Below the pieces are notes generated by a model that saw only the letters and a list, made by a program, of their open reading frames with translations, had not been told where the DNA came from and did no database searches. Positions 2,241 through 58,572 of a stretch of DNA of 64,000 nucleotides are shown here, piece after piece. Source of the stretch: an uncultured Candidatus Peribacteria bacterium (GTDB taxonomy: Bacteria; Patescibacteriota; Gracilibacteria; BD1-5; JAGOOR01); assembly GCA_964544625.1 (NCBI GenBank), contig CAZJBQ010000002.1, forward strand, positions 49,462 to 113,461, read 5' to 3'. Positions within the stretch are counted from its first letter, which is position 1; the number at the start of each line of letters is the position of its first letter. A program made the position numbers and the translations under genes.

Positions 2241-4004
2241 ATGCACAAAGGCGAGTTTATATCACCAGATGTACTATTCGAAGGGAAAGAAGTACCGCTC
2301 CCATATATTCCTATCCATATTATTCATTTACTTGCTCGCAGGGCCCCAAATATAATATATGGATTTGATGGATCAAAGAGAAAACAACTCGATCAATACA
2401 TAGCGGGCTTGCGAGATATCTGAGCAACAAATAAACTCCTCCGCAGGATGCTCGTTGGCTTTACAGATTGAATATCAGTGAAATGTAGGCGAATTGAAAT
2501 GTCTCTCATAGATTTAATAGGGGGAGAAGCAGTTAATGCATTACAAACGAGCAAAGGACTTGCGAGAAACGATCTCCTCAAACAACTGCAAGGAATGATT
2601 TTCTCAGAAAAAAGTTCTTTTGCACAGTCAGGTATATCGATTTCATGTGTTGTGGAGGACGTAGGGCCAAATAATGTTTTTCATACTCTTGATCAACTGA
2701 AAAAGAGTAGGGTAAGTCTCATAGTGGCGACAGTTGTTGATATATTTGAGCATGAATTCCTCTCCGAACTCATACAATGAGTCAAGGGGAAAGTAGGTCG
2801 CTTACTTGATCTGTGAGAACCTGTGTTGCGAACGTTTCTAGAAAATGATCAAAGTGTTGGAGCGTATGTGTCTCCCGGGGATAATGCATGGAACCAGCGT
2901 GAGATAATGATAGGGGATAAAAAGCAGAGGTATAAGGATCCGTGTGTTGATAACTCAGGCGCACTTATTGTACCACTGTGCCCAGAGGAAATTTATGATG
3001 GAGAAAATCATGAATGGAAAAATGCAGACAGAGTCAAGGTGTACAATATCGAAGAGGCAGTTGTGCGGGATATATTGGATGGGAGATCACGCAAAGGTCT
3101 CAAACACAGAACATCAATGCTTGTGCCACAGACTGACGTCATTAAACCTGGGCAAACTAGAATTCTTGAGATACCACTTGATGCAGGTCCTTATAATGCT
3201 AATATCGGTGTTGTATGTGTGTGACCAGATGGGAAGGAGATAGATGTCGTACATTTTCCCGCGACGTATCTCGATGCTGTACGTTCGTTTCCAGACGGTG
3301 AGAATCGTATACAGGTAGAAATCAAAAATGTTGGGAGTAAAGATATACAACTCAAAGATATTCATTTCCGAGTCAAATTTTATAAAACTGACACAAAAAC
3401 TCGTAAAAAATGGGAGCTCAGAAAAGCTCTCCAGTATGCAGAATTCAAATGATATTATGCTCTCGAACACCTCATATATACCAAAGTTTTGAAAGGTACA
3501 GAAGGGTGAAATCTAGAGGATTGCATGCTTGCGCTGGGAGATCTCAGTAATATGGATAATTTTTGGTGAGATGATCAAGGGGTATTATTTTATCAGCAAG
3601 AGGTTAATGGACACATAGAGGATAGATTCGAAAGGGTGGCATACTCATGATCAGAAGGGGTGAAATTGCAATCAATTACGGCATGAGAAGTCCGAGAATA
3701 TGGTACGACATATCAGAGAGAGCTCATACGAGTTCTGCAAAACGCTTGTTTAGTCGGGAGGGAAAAGAGGGTTATATTTGTCTGTCGTAATGATATAAAT
3801 CATGAGAGCCTGATGGCTATTACCAAGACAGGAAGCGTGACTGATATACTGTCTGTGCCAGGCAAGCGCACTGCATTTGAACCAAATAATGACTTACTGA
3901 AGATGTGTAAACATGAAAAAATACAACTGACTTCTATTAGTGTTGTAGAGCCGGGTACAGCTGATCGAGATGCTACGTATAATCTCCTAGGTGCTCAGCG
4001 ATAA
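2241..4004 (+). CDS. hypothetical protein (587 aa)
   Basis: Track ORFs 2241, 2478, 2823 and 3813 are all in frame 0 and are joined by TGA codons with no TAA/TAG between them. -10 TATAAA lies 6 nt before the ATG. Confidence 0.6.
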
Positions 4005-5869: not shown

Positions 5870-6625
5870 CTATGCACTGATACGAGTTCCGCCACGGATA
5901 GTACGTCCCATGATATGTTGGTAAACAGTTGAAGTAACCCCATCACAAATATGGGTCACACCACCTGTTTTTGCGAATTCTCTCCCGACTGCAAGTTTTG
6001 AGCGCATGCCTCCTGTTCATGTCTGTGATTTTTCTCCACAAACTGTTCCCAGCCAACTCTCTGTTATAGTGTCTGACGAAAGTTCTTTGATTCGTGTTGA
6101 CGCATCATCTTTGTCGGAGTAGACACCATTTGTATTGGTGATGAGCACGATATCCGAAGCAGAGAGATATCGTGCTACGAGGAGAGCATTTTTATCATTA
6201 TCAGCGCCTCTTCCGAGCGCTTGCATTTCTGCCGTTGAGAGAGCATCGTTTTCATTGATAATTGGGAGTACTCCAGCCTCGAGAATATCGTTGACTGTGC
6301 GTACAAATTGAATTCGATGACTCTCTATATCTTCGAGAGTAGCATGAGTTGGGAGGATTTGTGCTGTGACGATACCACGCTTTCGAAATTTCTCTGCATA
6401 GCGTGCCATCAGTATTGGTTGACCGACACTCGCGAGTATTTGGTTATTTTTCTCTCATCAGAGTATCTCACGGCCACATCCGACTGCTCCAGAAGAAATG
6501 AGAATAACAGAGATTTTTTGTTTCATGAGTTGGGCGATATCTGCGATCATTTTTTTCACCTTTTCGCTGGTGTGAAAATTCGCGAGAGATTCTGTGCCGA
6601 CTTTCACGATAATTGTTTTGTCCAT
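5870..6625 (-). CDS. proB: glutamate 5-kinase (no PUA domain)
   Basis: IIVKVGT..., GADNDKNALLVA, and G(TGA)TGGMRSKL motifs. Track ORF 6017-6409 extended in frame on both sides. Confidence 0.75.
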
Positions 6626-6639
6626 AAAATTGTTGTATA

Positions 6640-6760
6640 AAAAATAAAAACCCTCTTGCGTACAAGAGGGCTGAAAAGAATATTGTGTACTTAAGAGCTA
6701 CCCCTTGGGAGAGAAGAGAAGTGGGGGAACCGGTGATGTGATTTGGAAAATATGATTCAT
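6640..6760 (-). promoter_or_regulatory. leader-peptide attenuator, unit proximal to proB (Pro-rich leader)
   Basis: Leader ORF 6760-6698 encodes MNHIFQITSPVPPLLFSPKG. Terminator CCCTCTTG/CAAGAGGG (6651-6670) plus a U-run. The leader 3' end CAAGGGG can pair with the terminator 5' arm. Confidence 0.6.
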
Positions 6761-6764
6761 AGCA

Positions 6765-6907
6765 ATAAAAAATCCCTCTACTGAAGAGGGATTTGAATTT
6801 AAAAATACAACAAATCTACCTCTTCATGAAGTTGAGATATGGCGGAGTTGAGAGATTTTTGTTGCAGAACATACTACAGAGTATAGCTTCGTTTCTGATT
6901 TTGTAAA
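6765..6907 (-). promoter_or_regulatory. promoter plus leader-peptide attenuator, distal unit of the proB tandem
   Basis: TTTACA-16-TATACT, then 7 nt, then ATG 6872. Leader ORF 6872-6816 encodes MFCNKNLSTPPYLNFMKR. Terminator ATCCCTCT/AGAGGGAT (6772-6792) plus a U-run. Confidence 0.5.
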
Positions 6908-6920
6908 ATAACAAATTTTT

Positions 6921-7502
6921 TTATCCGAATCTATGTTTCATCCAGAGAAGTATGGATAGCTGTAGATTACTTAGAGCTTTTCACTCGTAGAGTGATTGGG
7001 GAGTTTCCCACGACAATGTTCTAGGCATAGTATGAGAATCTGTATCCTCCTGAAAAATCCCTACTTCACCTGCGAGCAGTATGCGTCAGAGAAAGAGCAT
7101 GCCAGATTCTTTGTCCGTTTCGCATGGAATGAGCACTCAAAAATCCCCATGGCCACAACTATCAACAGGAGTAATATGCGGAAGTTTTTGAGTGAGAAGT
7201 TCATCAGGACGGAGACTTCATTTACCAACAGTTATTATGGATTTTCATGGTCTTCAAGAAGATTCTGTTACGAGCAATCTTCAGGCCCGATCAGCTACTA
7301 TGATACATCTCTGTGCCACTGTCTGTCAATCATATCTTTTCGGACGTACAAACTGCTGTTCTTTCATATGGATAACTGTTTCTGCATCGGGAAGTATGTT
7401 TAACCCAGGAACAGTTGTGACCTTACCAATTCAAAAGGCGTGAATGAGTTTTTCTGTATTAGGTTGGGCAACAATGGTTTTTGATATATTTGTGCTGGAC
7501 AT
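6921..7502 (-). CDS. hypothetical protein (193 aa)
   Basis: ATG 7502 to TAA 6921-6923 with nine in-frame TGA and no TAA/TAG. The plus-strand track ORFs here look like antisense artefacts. Confidence 0.5.
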
Positions 7503-20991: not shown

Positions 20992-21143
20992 TTGAATTTT
21001 TCAGACTCAGAATATACTTTCTCCATGCGAAATATTCTCTCATCAGCAATGATACACCTGCTCACTCTCGTGACCAGGTAGTTTTTCGTTTCCGCTTAAT
21101 TCTACTCCCCGGGTCACACGACCTGGGGATTTTTTTGTTTTTT
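20992..21143 (+). promoter_or_regulatory. promoter plus leader-peptide attenuator (no single enriched residue)
   Basis: TTGAAT-15-TATACT, then 6 nt, then ATG 21025. Leader ORF 21025-21081 encodes MRNILSSAMIHLLTLVTR. Terminator CCCCGGGT/ACCTGGGG (21107-21128) plus a U-run ends 2 nt before ATG 21145. Confidence 0.5.
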
Positions 21144-21144
21144 T

Positions 21145-21471
21145 ATGGCCCTCAATCTCCAAAATATCGAATCTCGTATTGCGTCGGAATATTGTTGCAG
21201 TACGGAAGAAATTCAGCGCGTTCTTCACGATGTTCGTGAAGCAGTTTCTGGTCATATTTTTCGTCATGAACTTCGCCCGAGAGATATTTTTCAGATGCGA
21301 ATTATGACGCATGATGAGCATATGCGGCCAGTGCCACCAAGTGAACAAACCTATCTGATTATTAATTTCGGTAAAGACCAATTAGACGATGACTACCTCA
21401 GCTATCTCCGGTCCTACTATGGCAAAATAATTTTCTTCCATATCTATCTCAATCACTCCCTTATTCTCTAA
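21145..21471 (+). CDS. hypothetical protein (108 aa)
   Basis: Intact ORF directly behind the attenuator. Confidence 0.5.
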   Translation: MALNLQNIESRIASEYCCSTEEIQRVLHDVREAVSGHIFRHELRPRDIFQMRIMTHDEHMRPVPPSEQTYLIINFGKDQLDDDYLSYLRSYYGKIIFFHIYLNHSLIL

Positions 21472-45004: not shown

Positions 45005-45152
45005 TTGACAAAAATTTCATTCGTCTAAAATTATCTCTATGCGTCAAACCAGTTCACTTCTTCTCAGCCTTCTTCTTTCCCACCGGGAGAGTTAGTTTGC
45101 TGCGAAGAAAAACCACGCACTTTCCACTCTCCCCGAAACGGGAGAGTTTTTT
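45005..45152 (+). promoter_or_regulatory. leucine leader-peptide attenuator of leuA
   Basis: TTGACA-15-TAAAAT, then 7 nt, then ATG 45039. Leader encodes MRQTSSLLLSLLLSHRES (45039-45095). GGGAGAG at 45085-91 duplicates the terminator 3' arm (45140-46). The 5' arm CTCTCCC is at 45127-33. U6 follows. Confidence 0.7.
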
Positions 45153-45170: not shown

Positions 45171-46952
45171 ATGAGCAATGTAATGCACGAATTGGATATC
45201 CACTATGAAGAATGGTGAGAAATAATGGCACAAGTGATATCTTGAGAAAAACCCCTCGGTTTTCTACCCAAAAAGGAAAGTACTACGACTGGTTACAAAA
45301 TTTATAAGCCAGAAAAAGTTATTATCAACGAAGTTGGACCACGTGAATCGGACCAAGCAGGCGGATGATTCCAGCCCTGGAACAAAAAAGATATGATAGG
45401 CTCAGCTATAAGAGCCGGTATTCCAGCTGTAGAGGTGGCATTTGCGGCAGGAGTAGACATGCAGACTATTGACTGGGCCGTATCTGAATTTGGCCGCGAA
45501 AATACACGTTTATCAGCTCTAACAGGATTCTTCCCACAAGCTATAAAAGAAGGAGCGGGGAAATTGAACAAAGCAAAGAATGGAGGAGTACATATTTTTT
45601 ATCCTACCCAAATACACCATATACAGGCTATGTTGGACAAAGACGGTAAGACACCAGTGAGAGATTTACAAGACCAGGTGCTCAAAATGATTGAGAATAA
45701 TGTCTGAATAGCACGCGATAATATCGGAAATGTCCAATTCTCACCGGAGATTGCTACTGATACTGATCCAGTTTTTCTCCTCGAATCTGTGAGAAAGGCT
45801 ATCGAGAGCGGAGCTACTATTATCAATATGCCAGATACACGAGGAGGAACGCCTACTTGGTATATGGAGAAATTATTTCATTTTATGAGTTGGGGTACAC
45901 AAGATTTACGAGAAAAACATGATTTTATATTTTCTTGTCATAATCATAATGATACAGGCATGGCTATTGCGAATAGTATTGCTGCTATTCGATGATGAGC
46001 TACACAAGTAGAGTCCACATTTTCTGGTGTTGGGGAATGAGCAGGCAATGCTCCAACAGAGCAGATAATAAATACTTTGAGACAGAATGGCTATGATATC
46101 GGAAAAATAGATAACAAGAAAGCATGAAGGATTGCTGAATATGTCAGAGCTGTTGTCTATGGTCAAGTGGTAGTCCCATATGGTCCCTGATCTGATGCAG
46201 ATGGTGCTGGAGTCCACAAGGATCGTTGGCATAAATATGTCGCATGGTGTCGAAAAAATAATCTTCATCCCAATCCTGATTTTTATAGAGCGGGCGCAAG
46301 TAGGCTCAATTTTGAAGCAGATAGTGATAATGTAGCGATAGGGAGGTTGGGCGGTGCAGGACAAGTTCTTCACGCTCTCAAGTCTCACGGTGTATTTCGC
46401 CCTACAAAAAAATGACCTACAGTAGGAAGGATACATACTACTTTTTGTGGTGACGATAAGGGAAAAATTGGCACCACACAAGAAACCAAAGTAGCCTATG
46501 ATTCAAACGTATTTGCTGAATATCTCCGTAATTCAAGGAGAATATCACAAGAAAATATATCTTTTGAGAATAATTCTGTCACTATTTCGGCTGTTATCAA
46601 TGGTAAAAATATAGTTATATCTGGGCCCATGAGTACCGAATCTGGTCCTATCCCGACAATTATTTGAGCTATTAATAGATTTTTAGGTAAAGAAATAATC
46701 AAACTTCACGTTGAGCCTATTTATAAACCAATATTCACACCCGATGTTGCTCAACAACAATTTCCAGATATTCATCAAAACGGAACTCATCACAGTGATG
46801 TCGAAGATGCTCCTCTCTGGTCTGAGGTTGTTGTCAGTGTTAACGGTATTAACAAAAAATCTCGAGTAAGATGACAAAATATTGATGAAACATTTATTCG
46901 TGCTATATTTGAAGCGTGCCTGGATGTGATATGTCAAAAAACAAAAGAATAG
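45171..46952 (+). CDS. leuA: 2-isopropylmalate synthase (LeuA/CimA family) with C-terminal regulatory domain
   Basis: MPDTRGG, CHNHNDTGMAIAN and GVGEG(TGA)AGNA motifs. Three track fragments in frame 0. Confidence 0.85.
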
Positions 46953-47691: not shown

Positions 47692-47966
47692 TTGACTCAA
47701 CTGAAGAAATCGCTATAGTTCTTTCATGCAAATAAATTTCACAACAAAGACGCCAAAACTTCTCACATCGAGAGGGTAGTTTTTGTTTAAAATTTAATTT
47801 TTCAAAACCCTCTCAACCTGAGAGGGTTTTATTTTTTACGAATTGTATGTCACATCACCTCTCTCTCATAACAAGCACCACCAAGAAACCGCCAAAGCGG
47901 GGAGGATAAATTATTGCCACTTTATTCTCCACTCCGCTTTGAAACATCTGAAGCGGATTTTATTTT
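47692..47966 (+). promoter_or_regulatory. tandem Thr/Lys-rich leader-peptide attenuators of lysC-asd
   Basis: TTGACT-16-TATAGT, then 6 nt, then ATG 47726. Leader 1 encodes MQINFTTKTPKLLTSRG (to 47779), with terminator 47808-47837. Leader 2 encodes MSHHLSLITSTTKKPPKRGG (47847-47909), with terminator 47933-47966. Confidence 0.65.
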
Positions 47967-47980
47967 CTCATTTTATTTTT

Positions 47981-49225
47981 ATGTCACAGAGTTTATCACT
48001 ACCGCGAGTCCTCAAAGTCTGAGGAATACAAGTAGCCCGTATCTCTGATACAAGACCTCTTATTCAACGCCTCAAACAAGATGGTCCACTATCAGTTATT
48101 CTTTCTGCTCCAAATACGGATCAATTTCGTACAACCAATGTCCTCATAGAAGCCGCTTCTTCGCTTGCTGCTTGAGATGTGCAAAAATCGAGAGAACTCC
48201 TCCTCTCTGTACAGGATTTTGTTCTCAATACTGTTTGTCTCCCCCTTCATGGGGAAGCTATTTTTACAAAAATACAGAGAGATGTGTCTGGGCTTTTCCA
48301 GCAATATTTCACAGATATGGATTTTTATTTACGTAAAAGGTCTCCAACGGCTCGACTCTATACTTCTGCTCCAGAAGAATCCAATGATTTTGTTGCATCT
48401 GTATGGAAAAAACCAACACACAATGGGCGTGGTGGATCTGGGAAACTTCAAACAGTGATACCATTTATCGAACTCGGTGAAAATATATCCGCGATTATCT
48501 ATGCACATCTGACTGGCGGAATACCGATCACGAGTCGATCATGGATGAGGGATGAAATTGCAGACGTTCATAAAAGAGTAAGAGAGAGTCAAAATCTCAT
48601 TATTTCATGAGCCCTCCGTATGAATGCTCGAGACAAAATGCTTGTTCGCTTCTGACGTGGATATACAGATGCAAATGCGTGACGCTTGGCCTTTGGCGCA
48701 GGAGCTGAATTGCTCGTTCATAAAGAATATCCTGTCTGTACTGCCGATCCAAGAATCGTAAATGGTTCGAGTCGACCAATACCCGAAGCCTCTATGGCAA
48801 CACTTCGTGCCAGTCTCCATCCTCTTGTTGGTGCTCAGTTTCTCAATCCTCATGTTTTCGCTGACGGAGAACCAGTGGATATTCAGGTTGGCGATTTTGC
48901 TTCGGAGAGGATAACGCGTGTTTCACGGAGAGATATACCCGAAGCACTCCCACTTATCCAAAAAGGTCCACGAGTACGGAGAGCTCAGGAGTGAATGAAT
49001 TTCTGAGATATATCTCTCTCAGTCAACGGATGAGGAGATGAATGTGTTATATCAGTCGTGGATCATTCTGCACGAAGTATAGAACGTGCTAGAGATATCC
49101 AGAGCATTCTTTGATCTAGAGGTGTTATTGTTTCACTCAATGAACGTGTTGCATCAGTATTGGTCCCATACGACCAGGCAAACGACATTGTTCGACAGCT
49201 TCATCAGAATATGTGCGAGACATAA
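47981..49225 (+). CDS. lysC: aspartate kinase with C-terminal ACT region
   Basis: VLKVG(TGA)G, SAPNT..TN and TADPRIV motifs. Three same-frame fragments. Confidence 0.85.
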
Positions 49226-49246: not shown

Positions 49247-50257
49247 ATGAAAATCGGAATTGTATGAGCGACAGGTGCAGTAGGACAAGAATTACTTCCA
49301 CTGCTTAAAAAAAGAGATTTTCCTGTCTGAGAATTGAGAGTATTTGGTTCAGAAAACTCAGCGGGAAAAACAATAGAAACGCCTTATGGACCAAGAGTTA
49401 TTCAGCTTCTTTCTGAAGAGGGAATACAGTGATTGGATGCGATGTTTTTTGCAGCGAGTGCTGAAGTATCTCGTGTATGGTGTCTTCGTGCTGCAGAAAA
49501 ATGAATTCTCTGCGTGGATAAATCGAGTGCATTTCGGAGTGATCCAAATATCCCACTTGTTGTGCCAGAAGTAAATGGCCACAGTATCCGTGAGGGTGAC
49601 CTGATTATCTCTAGTCCGAATTGTACAGCCACCATCGGAGCGTTGGCACTATGACCTATTCATCAGGCTTTGTGACTACGACGAGTGTTTGCATCGACCT
49701 ATCAAGCAGCGAGCGGTGCTGGACAACCAGCGATGGAAGAGCTTATCGCAGCCACGCGTGCAAAGCTGGCAGGAGAAAATTTCACACCACAACAATTCGA
49801 TCATAATTTAGCCCTTAATCTCTTCCCACACATTGGTACTTTTCTCGAAGATGGATATACGGATGAAGAAATGAAGTTCACTAATGAACTTCGTCGGATT
49901 TTAGGGTTACCACACCTCCCAATAGATTGTACCTCTGTGCGTGTACCTATTTCTCGAGCTCACAGTGAAGATATTACGGTCGAAACTGAACAGCCTTTTG
50001 TCGTGAAGCAGGTCCAAGAGCTTTTATCACGGTCAGCTGGCGTAGACCTCGTTGATGAACCAGGAAAAAAACGGTATCCTATGCCTTCGTGAGCAACAGG
50101 AAAGTATAATGTGGAAGTGGGGCGAGTACGTCAGAGTTTTTCTTTTGATGGACACGGTGGTCGATTCTTCGTATCTGGTGATCAGCTCCTCAAGGGTGCA
50201 GCACTCAATGGACTCCAAATACTCGAACATGTATTGAAACAGAGACGAAAAGCCTAA
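49247..50257 (+). CDS. asd: aspartate-semialdehyde dehydrogenase
   Basis: IGIVG(TGA)ATGAVG, SPNCTA active-site Cys and [10 protein letters not shown]. Confidence 0.9.
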
Positions 50258-58038: not shown

Positions 58039-58572
58039 CTACGCTTCTCCTGAGATAGTTTTTCCGGTTGGAATAAGATGAGAATCATCAAACGAACCAA
58101 CATCCCCGGCAGGATTATTGCAACTCCCTATCTCGTATTTGTCTGGATCGAGGGTTATGCCACTGACGTTATCCTGTGCATATTTTGCTCTATTGTTGGA
58201 GCTCTCAAATGGTGTTGCTAGGAGAAAACCCGTACCACCATCACAAGAAATATAATAATATCCGCAGTGAACGGGGTTGTCATTACTATTGAGACAAGCG
58301 GTAGATGTATTACCGAGTTGTTCAGCGATATTTTTCCCAGTGACTTCACGTATATAACGACTTAATTCTTGAGCATCACGGAGAACCACTCATTTCTTTT
58401 GAATTGCATCGACGAGAACCACATTGATAGCATTGAGATCATCAATACGAGTCGTATCACGAGCCCCTTTGATAAATTTACCATACTGTGAGATACCCGC
58501 TGTTGCGAGGATGGCGATGATAGCCATGACGACCATGAGTTCCACGAGTGTAAAACCTTTTTGGCGGTGCAT
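58039..58572 (-). CDS. type IV pilin/pseudopilin (paralog)
   Basis: Same N-terminal helix. The C-terminal domain is a diverged homolog (CGY.Y..CDGGTG.LLA..FESSNN). Confidence 0.8.
58445..58563 (-). repeat. 119-nt near-identical 5' coding segment shared with the first pilin gene
   Basis: One mismatch versus 57779-57897. Confidence 0.85.

Follow-up and report, generated by a model that had tools for sequence, protein, structure and literature searches.

The window examined here is a stretch of 64,000 nucleotides (nt) from contig CAZJBQ010000002.1 of an uncultured bacterium belonging to the Gracilibacteria. On its minus strand lies a gene of the glutamate 5-kinase (proB) type, preceded by a pair of small open reading frames (ORFs) that contain proline codons, each followed by a hairpin resembling an intrinsic terminator. 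The proB-like gene (6625-5870) encodes 251 amino acids, has no PUA domain, and contains three TGA codons read as glycine. The intergenic region upstream of it (6920-6626) is 295 nt long, and it is within this region that the putative tandem proline leader described below is located.

All parts of the leader region lie on the minus strand, where an initial annotation of this DNA had placed them. The promoter (6907-6880) consists of a −35 box, TTTACA (6907-6902), a 16-nt spacer, and a −10 box, TATACT (6885-6880). Because the −10 box ends 7 nt before the ATG of leader ORF 1 at 6872, transcription probably initiates on that ATG or no more than a few nucleotides from it, and the mRNA would thus be leaderless with respect to leader 1. 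Leader ORF 1 (6872-6816) encodes MFCNKNLSTPPYLNFMKR*, with the proline codons CCG CCA at codons 10 and 11 (6845-6840). The last codons and stop of leader 1 lie in region 2 of the first unit (6826-6811, UGAAGAGGUAGAUUUG), the 5′ strand of a predicted antiterminator. The unit 1 terminator (6794-6764) follows, with a 10-bp hairpin, AAAUCCCUCU-ucagu-AGAGGGAUUU (−13.2 kcal/mol), which the initial annotation had given as 6772-6792 and which extends from 6794 to 6770, and with a U-run reaching 6764. Leader ORF 2 (6760-6698) encodes MNHIFQITSPVPPLLFSPKG*, with prolines at codons 10, 12, 13, and 18; its proline cluster, CCG GUU CCC CCA, occupies 6733-6722, and the codon for Pro18 (CCC) occupies 6709-6707. 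Region 2 of the second unit (6707-6696, CAAGGGGUAGCU) again comprises the last codons and stop of the leader, and the unit 2 terminator (6672-6639) is composed of the 10-bp hairpin AGCCCUCUUG-uacg-CAAGAGGGUU (6672-6649, −14.4 kcal/mol) and a U-run. The end of this U-run, at 6639, lies 13 nt (rather than about 15 nt, as first reported) before the proB ATG at 6625. The stretch that follows terminator 2 is too short to hold a promoter of proB's own. The one candidate between that terminator and the ATG, a poor TATACA with no −35 box, was not listed by the promoter scan and was rejected as the main promoter. Within the first 20 kb of the window, no other terminator-like site ranks as high as these two hairpins. 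The 261-nt leader as a whole folds better than shuffled versions of itself (z = −4.2), and its minimum-energy fold places unit 1 in the antiterminator form rather than the terminator form.

Related loci were fetched from genome and metagenome collections by means of an alignment of ProB relatives, and further contigs were added by exact-protein look-up. In 21 Gracilibacteria loci, with the window counted among them, proB is immediately preceded by a proline leader unit, which gives 28 leaders in all, and the ProB proteins encoded by the leader-bearing loci are 41 to 75% identical to the ProB of the window. Seven of the 21 loci, the window among them, have tandem units, and the terminator of unit 1 is kept in all seven; the other 14 have a single unit. 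The units share the same order: a TTGACA-like −35 box, a 16-nt spacer, a TAnnnT −10 box, an ATG 6 to 7 nt farther on, an ORF of 15 to 22 codons with a Pro-Pro (PP) or Pro-X-Pro (PxP) cluster 7 to 9 codons before the stop, and a hairpin with a U-run that ends 10 to 25 nt before proB. The promoter geometry is particularly regular, with the −10 box ending 6 to 7 nt before the leader ATG in 17 of the 21 loci and a 16-nt spacer likewise in 17 of 21. A comparable promoter at that distance precedes only 6 of the 2531 ATGs in the window, and of these six, four open long ORFs (three of them called genes) and two open leader ORFs. Intact terminators were found in 23 of the 25 units checked, and the terminator is also present in L108-L110 (loci are designated by L numbers here).

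A PP or PxP motif occurs in every one of the 28 leaders, although PP itself is found in only 15 of them and most leaders of a sister clade have PxP (PVP, PLP, or PTP). Proline accounts for 14.3% of leader residues, compared with 4.0% in the genes of the window, and its positions peak 7 to 9 codons upstream of the leader stop. The leader 1 ORF with its TPPY or VPPY motif is kept in L001, L003, L004, L097, L099, and L101. Sequence conservation does not extend to the N-terminal halves of the leaders, yet the frame is open in 28 of 28. The third positions of the proline codons vary synonymously between loci (CCG/CCC/CCU, CCC/CCU, and CCA/CCG), leader types differ in length by multiples of three nucleotides, the spacing between −10 box and ATG is fixed, and the stop codon always falls inside region 2; on the basis of these features, the leaders show signs of coding. 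Taken alone, the proline enrichment of leader 2 is moderate (4 of 19 residues, P = 0.006), and it is because of the conservation in 21 related loci, and not because of proline enrichment alone, that the leader unit is considered to lie beyond chance.

The behavior expected of the nascent RNA was assessed by folding it with a ribosome at various positions in the 23 units that have an intact terminator. Footprints of +4, +7, and +10 nt were used for the stalled ribosome; a footprint of +14 nt hid the antiterminator of the sister clade. With the ribosome on the last proline codon of the cluster, region 2 was predicted in every one of these units to engage the terminator's 5′ arm, either completely or for the most part. 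When the ribosome stood on the stop codon, nothing competed with the terminator: the free energy was approximately 0, and no nucleotides of the arm were paired upstream in 22 of the 23 units; the window's own unit 2 accounted for the remainder, with 2 of 10 arm nucleotides paired upstream. When no ribosome was present, an upstream segment often paired with region 2. In unit 1 of the window, the pairing between region 2 and the 5′ arm takes in 10 of 10 arm nucleotides (−15.1 kcal/mol; z = −4.8 relative to shuffles), and region 2 would be masked by a ribosome at the stop of leader 1. Region 2 of unit 2 also pairs with 10 of 10 nt of its arm (−10.9 kcal/mol). The pairing of the leader ends AGAGG and CAAGGGG with the respective 5′ arms, which the initial annotation had pointed out, emerges from the folding as two predicted antiterminators. 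L003 and L099 carry CAAGAGG, which pairs perfectly with the unit 2 arm.

In the sister clade, the element follows a textbook plan of four segments, which can be written as 1 = CCUUUCGA, 2 = (GA)CUCUCGAAAGG, 3 = CCCCCUCGAGAGUC, and 4 = UCGAGGGGG, and the 2:3 duplexes have predicted energies of −13.6 to −19.8 kcal/mol. RNAalifold selected the 2:3 antiterminator helix unaided on a MAFFT alignment that had not been fitted to any structure. In this helix, 94% of cells are paired, none of 500 shuffles reached the observed covariation score, and slid registers of the same helix gave pairing of only 30 to 57%. The covarying column pair 58:106 is C:G in seven and U:A in four of the 11 loci examined, with no mismatch. 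Since this pair is located in the loops of both competing hairpins, its covariation is explained only by 2:3 pairing. Loci with C:G and loci with U:A are intermingled on the ProB tree, and the double change is thereby implied to have arisen independently several times. The competing 1:2 helix of the sister clade, CCUUUCGA:UCGAAAGG, has a predicted energy of −9.5 kcal/mol and two compensatory pairs; for unit 2 of the window, the prediction is of a weak hairpin only. The MAFFT alignment of the sister clade misregisters some terminator arms, and helix 3:4 was for this reason counted by anchor-based bookkeeping; some of the compensatory calls in helix 3:4 for L007 and L008 are register artifacts.

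The genes that accompany the element provide a further line of evidence. The proB-like product belongs to the AA_kinase family of Pfam (E = 4e-32). In the sister clade, the proline leader unit precedes proB, which is directly followed by proS (TIGR00409, 368 bits against a cut-off of 306.7), and in L102 a family-I prolyl-tRNA synthetase (ProRS) stands in the position of the bacterial-type proS of the sister clade. No ProRS was found in the window by tblastn. A sensor made of proline codons placed before a proline kinase and a prolyl-tRNA synthetase would form a coherent picture.

We consider it highly probable that the region upstream of proB acts as a transcription attenuator of the ribosome-mediated (leader-peptide) type, built in tandem, and that it senses Pro-charged tRNA and controls the proB operon. 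The tandem proline-codon leaders and terminators proposed in the initial annotation are borne out, as far as sequence and comparison can show, by the parts themselves, their conservation, the alternative ribosome-dependent pairings, the covariation, and the association with proline genes. Under this model, transcription would begin at approximately 6872 and a ribosome would start on the 5′-terminal AUG of leader 1. If Pro-tRNA(Pro) were ample, the ribosome would reach the leader stop and mask region 2, the terminator hairpin and U-run would form, and RNA polymerase would stop. If Pro-tRNA(Pro) were scarce, the ribosome would stall on the proline cluster (CCG CCA in leader 1), 7 to 9 codons before the stop, leaving region 2 free to pair with the 5′ arm of the terminator, and polymerase would read through. 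A second, identical decision would be made at leader 2 and terminator 2 before proB is reached. Two successive read-throughs would be needed, and a low leak and a steeper response would be expected.

A number of observations weigh against this interpretation or limit its reach. The proline enrichment of leader 1 is weak when taken alone (2 of 17 residues, P = 0.15), and leader 2 possesses neither a promoter nor a Shine-Dalgarno (SD) sequence of its own. Support for the 1:2 anti-antiterminator helix is modest, with 43 of 500 shuffles reaching the observed score, and the predicted upstream partner in unit 1 of the window (AAAAAUCUCUC) differs from that of its relatives. The second terminator has decayed in L004 and L101, where the first is intact, and L013 and L017 are without any leader; the element is therefore dispensable. 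The best NCBIfam match of the kinase, TIGR01027 (proB), scores 146.9 bits, below the cut-off of 186, and neither ProA nor ProC (Aldedh, P5CR) was seen in those proteins of the window that were scanned or in the genes called around proB in related loci. Because of this score and of the missing neighbors, proline biosynthesis as the regulated function is an inference. The start of transcription, the translation of the leaders, the coupling between ribosome and polymerase, and any responsiveness to proline are likewise inferred from sequence, and termination at both hairpins is an in silico prediction. Finally, the RNA data consist of low-depth contigs (depth of 2 to 8) assembled from two metatranscriptomes; they span the leader and extend across terminator 2, with carry-over of DNA being possible. 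These contigs run from the upstream gene at 7502-6921 into the leader region, and they are unusable for defining 5′ or 3′ ends. In RNA run X25, a single contig joins 6766-6852 and 6862-6953 on opposite strands; this chimeric contig is probably an artifact of low-depth assembly.

Of the other explanations, the one that survives best is that intrinsic stalling at Pro-Pro is the main signal and that the leaders report the activity of elongation factor P (EF-P) or general translation capacity rather than the supply of Pro-tRNA. PP occurs in both leaders of the window (TPPY and PVPP), and proline-codon leaders in Salmonella are linked to EF-P. EF-P is also reported to keep transcription and translation coupled (PMC5021804). 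However, nearly half of the 28 leaders do without PP, the PVP, PLP, and PTP motifs of the sister clade are not classic EF-P-dependent motifs, and the regulated genes are proline specific (proB and proS). We therefore regard this explanation as unlikely. An EF-P input added on top of Pro-tRNA sensing, a second input that the initial annotation had raised, is speculation, and the PP motif is not conserved.

It is also conceivable, but very improbable, that the region is an untranslated RNA switch, either a riboswitch for a metabolite or a site recognized by an RNA-binding protein, which would work through the terminator and antiterminator described above and in which the C-rich "proline codons" are in fact a binding motif. 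The CCC-rich stretch is in part constrained by pairing (region 1 of the sister clade, CCUUUCGA), the segment CCCCU pairs with the GGGGG 3′ arm in the RNAalifold consensus, and leader translation is a prediction. A switch of this kind does not account for a leader ATG that follows the −10 box by 6 to 7 nt in 17 of 21 loci, for a frame that stays open in all 28 leaders despite unrelated N-terminal halves, or for frame-preserving indels, a synonymous change of proline codons, and a stop that is always in region 2. Other leaders of the window, moreover, are rich in different amino acids that match their own genes, and no Rfam family matched.

Equally improbable is the view that stalling takes place but acts mainly on the translation of proB or on mRNA stability, in the manner of the leaderless poly-Cys small ORFs (sORFs) of mycobacteria. 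Leaderless sORF attenuators that control translation do exist (bioRxiv 10.1101/834739), and the RNA contigs that cross terminator 2 would be compatible with such control. Both hairpins, however, have the full form of an intrinsic terminator, with a GC-rich stem of 8 to 10 bp and a U-run immediately behind it, and the AU-rich start region of proB, located 13 to 24 nt downstream of the hairpin, is masked in none of the predicted folds.

Least credible of all is that both hairpins are plain 3′ terminators belonging to the upstream gene at 7502-6921 or to a small RNA, with proB having its own start and the short ORFs arising by chance: a codirectional gene does end at 6921, 127 nt upstream of hairpin 1, and the RNA contigs are continuous from that gene into the leader region, but conservation together with covariation marks the ORF, the proline cluster, and the helix that region 2 forms with the 5′ arm, and there is no promoter match in the 13 nt between the U-run of terminator 2 and the proB ATG. 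The possibility that hairpin 1 serves solely as the terminator of the upstream gene, which the initial annotation had named as the outcome that would overturn it, is contradicted by five loci (L003, L004, L096, L099, and L101) that keep leader and hairpin after a divergent rsmF; since no codirectional gene ends there in the rsmF loci, hairpin 1 cannot be merely an upstream-gene terminator.

The distribution of the leader element on a neighbor-joining tree of ProB gives some indication of its history. The leader element occurs throughout one large ProB clade and is absent from the outgroup loci L010, L011, L012, and L014 as well as from the nested loci L013 and L017. The tandem form seems to be ancestral to the clade that includes the window. 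Two loci, L002 (approximately 3866-3997) and L096 (approximately 2870-3000), have a single hybrid unit whose 5′ half is like leader 1 and whose 3′ half is like unit 2. Because L002 and L096 are not sisters on the ProB tree, this arrangement suggests two independent collapses of the tandem by recombination between the repeats.

The gene context of the leader has to be read in the genetic code of the organism. When TGA is treated as a sense codon, the window contains 138 long ORFs, compared with 40 under the standard code, and the three in-frame TGA codons of proB (codons 56, 57, and 203) fall on conserved glycine positions (GREILGG and TGTGGM). Owing to this gain in ORFs and to the TGA codons on conserved ProB glycines, the window genome is assigned to code 25 (the Gracilibacteria/Absconditabacteria type), in which TGA encodes glycine. 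It follows that ORF lists made with table 11 are fragmented; table 11 also makes proB look broken at its in-frame TGA codons. All window ORFs were retranslated under code 25. TGA is absent from both leader ORFs. The close relatives that were found are all labeled as Gracilibacteria or as a related candidate group. Upstream of the leader, the codirectional gene at 7502-6921 (minus strand) encodes 193 amino acids with no family match, and in the window's clade the upstream neighbor is usually a divergent rsmF. Downstream of proB and on the same strand is a gene for a transporter of the Vut_1/YhhQ family (5761-5054), which is probably in one transcription unit with proB; the order proB-(NUDIX)-Vut_1 is kept in L097, L099, and L101. 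A PUA-less kinase that falls short of the NCBIfam proB cut-off and lacks an adjacent proA is also found in L006-L009, L015-L017, L102, L104, L106, and L108-L110. A tRNA scan of the window found no tRNA genes.

Initiation without an SD sequence is not peculiar to the proline leaders. SD-like motifs were found upstream of only 5 of the 57 crudely called genes in the window. In front of several genes, a good promoter is placed so that its −10 box ends 6 to 7 nt before the ATG, for example, at the starts at 58572 (minus strand), 46988 (plus strand), and 2099 (minus strand). The promoter positions suggest that leaderless mRNAs are frequent in this organism, and from the rarity of SD motifs together with the promoter-to-ATG geometry, leaderless or SD-independent initiation seems to be normal in it.

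Other leader-like units are present in the window. At 45039-45152 (plus strand), a promoter (TTGACA..TAAAAT) is followed after 7 nt by the ATG of MRQTSSLLLSLLLSHRES*, which contains six leucine and five serine residues, and the 3′ end of this ORF mimics the 3′ arm of the terminator ACUCUCCCCgaaaCGGGAGAGUUUUUU. The gene that follows (45171-46952, plus strand) encodes a 593-amino-acid HMGL-like protein that is LeuA-like (of the 2-isopropylmalate synthase type). The unit is built like those before proB and has the appearance of a leucine leader. At 47726-47966 (plus strand), there are tandem leaders rich in threonine and lysine, MQINFTTKTPKLLTSRG* and MSHHLSLITSTTKKPPKRGG*, with a terminator after each and, before the first, a −10 box 6 nt from the ATG; they are followed by a gene for a 414-amino-acid protein with no Pfam match (47981-49225) and then by asd (aspartate-semialdehyde dehydrogenase, 49247-50257). 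At 39384-39273 (minus strand), the leader MQHLSSSSFAVKILQKLGG* has four consecutive serines, and behind it the terminator CUCCCCUcaaaaAGGGGAGUUUUUU directly adjoins the ATG of a gene for 132 amino acids with no assigned function (39272-38874); psd (phosphatidylserine decarboxylase) is next (38866-37997). At 21025-21136 (plus strand), TATACT lies 6 nt before the ATG of the leader MRNILSSAMIHLLTLVTR*, whose terminator is UCCCCGGGUCacacGACCUGGGGAUUUUUUU, and the gene behind it (21145-21471) encodes 108 amino acids with no family match. The leaders that match a pathway (leucine before the LeuA-like gene, threonine and lysine before the asd operon) appear to support the reading of the proB leaders as proline sensors.

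A wider hypothesis, which we put forward tentatively and would rate at somewhat below even odds, is that leaderless and often tandem leader-peptide attenuators are the main means of amino acid sensing in this lineage, with a regulon that includes proB, proB-proS, the LeuA-like gene, the asd operon, and others, and that a tandem gate responding to the same signal twice is sharper and less leaky than a single one. The traits of the lineage behind this view are a small genome, code 25, and the near absence of SD sequences. If the attenuator before proB is real, these uncultivated bacteria with reduced genomes would couple transcription to translation and would regulate amino acid genes without protein regulators or T-boxes. 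The leaders would then offer sequence clues to the amino acids that the organism still makes or must monitor, and they would tie the divergent, PUA-less "ProB" functionally to proline and ProRS in spite of the lack of an adjacent proA. They would also represent compact regulatory parts, free of TGA, that could be tested directly in a standard host.

Leader-peptide attenuation is a textbook mechanism that has been documented mainly in Proteobacteria, Actinobacteria, and a few Firmicutes. A survey from 2010 described leader-peptide systems as known only in Proteobacteria and Actinobacteria and added a histidine leader in bacilli (PMC2965389). The literature that we searched contained no proline leader before proB or proBA and described no leader peptides from Gracilibacteria or other members of the candidate phyla radiation, although coverage was incomplete and this is absence of evidence only; proline leader attenuation before proB is apparently unreported both for proline biosynthesis and for Gracilibacteria. 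Across the whole window, no Rfam family attained its gathering score. A permissive scan yielded generic matches below threshold only, of which Phe_leader scored highest (24.5 bits, E = 0.06, where the gathering score is 55), and gave no T-box match; assignment to the T-box or to the known Rfam leader families (Phe, His, Leu, Thr, and Trp) was rejected, as all were below the gathering score.

The closest counterparts in design are the classical attenuators of Proteobacteria (trpL, hisL, leuL, thrL, and pheL and the pheST leader). Like the window element, these have a short ORF with cognate codons, mutually exclusive 1:2, 2:3, and 3:4 pairings among which the position of the ribosome decides, and an intrinsic terminator just before a biosynthetic or aminoacyl-tRNA synthetase gene. 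The window unit differs from them in that it is directed at proline, is apparently leaderless rather than led by an SD sequence, and belongs to a code 25 Gracilibacteria host. The element also differs in having two to four regulatory codons arranged as PP or PxP and two complete units in series.

The mgtP leader of mgtCBR and the mgtL leader of mgtA in Salmonella likewise contain a short ORF rich in proline codons whose translation controls read-through, and these ORFs sense Pro-tRNA(Pro). They have no sequence homology to the window element and control genes for Mg2+ transport and virulence. The mgtCBR leader has two tandem attenuators, the ORFs of which sense different signals, ATP and proline (PMC3641672), whereas proline clusters are present in both units of the window.

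With respect to initiation, the window element would resemble the leaderless sORFs of Deinococcus and mycobacteria, in which the transcription start coincides with the ATG and the amino acid bias matches the gene; the geometry of the window fits this arrangement. In Deinococcus deserti, 14 leaderless leader peptides have been predicted before aminoacyl-tRNA synthetase and amino acid biosynthesis genes; the main text of that paper mentions no proline example, and the phylum differs from that of the window (PMC4007540). The leaderless poly-Cys sORFs of mycobacteria have been demonstrated to act at the level of translation by unmasking a ribosome-binding site (10.1101/834739). The output of the window element, in contrast, looks like intrinsic termination.

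With respect to what is regulated, the nearest parallel lies in a different class of RNA. In Firmicutes, T-box leaders precede proline genes, for example, B. subtilis proBA. The logic is shared, in that uncharged tRNA(Pro), or a low level of the charged form, leads to antitermination before proB, proA, or proS and a tandem arrangement, known also for T-boxes and riboswitches, sharpens the response. Unlike T-boxes, however, the units of the window are approximately 110 to 135 nt long and have no specifier loop or T-box sequence, and sensing, instead of relying on direct binding of the tRNA, would be carried out by the ribosome as it translates the leader.

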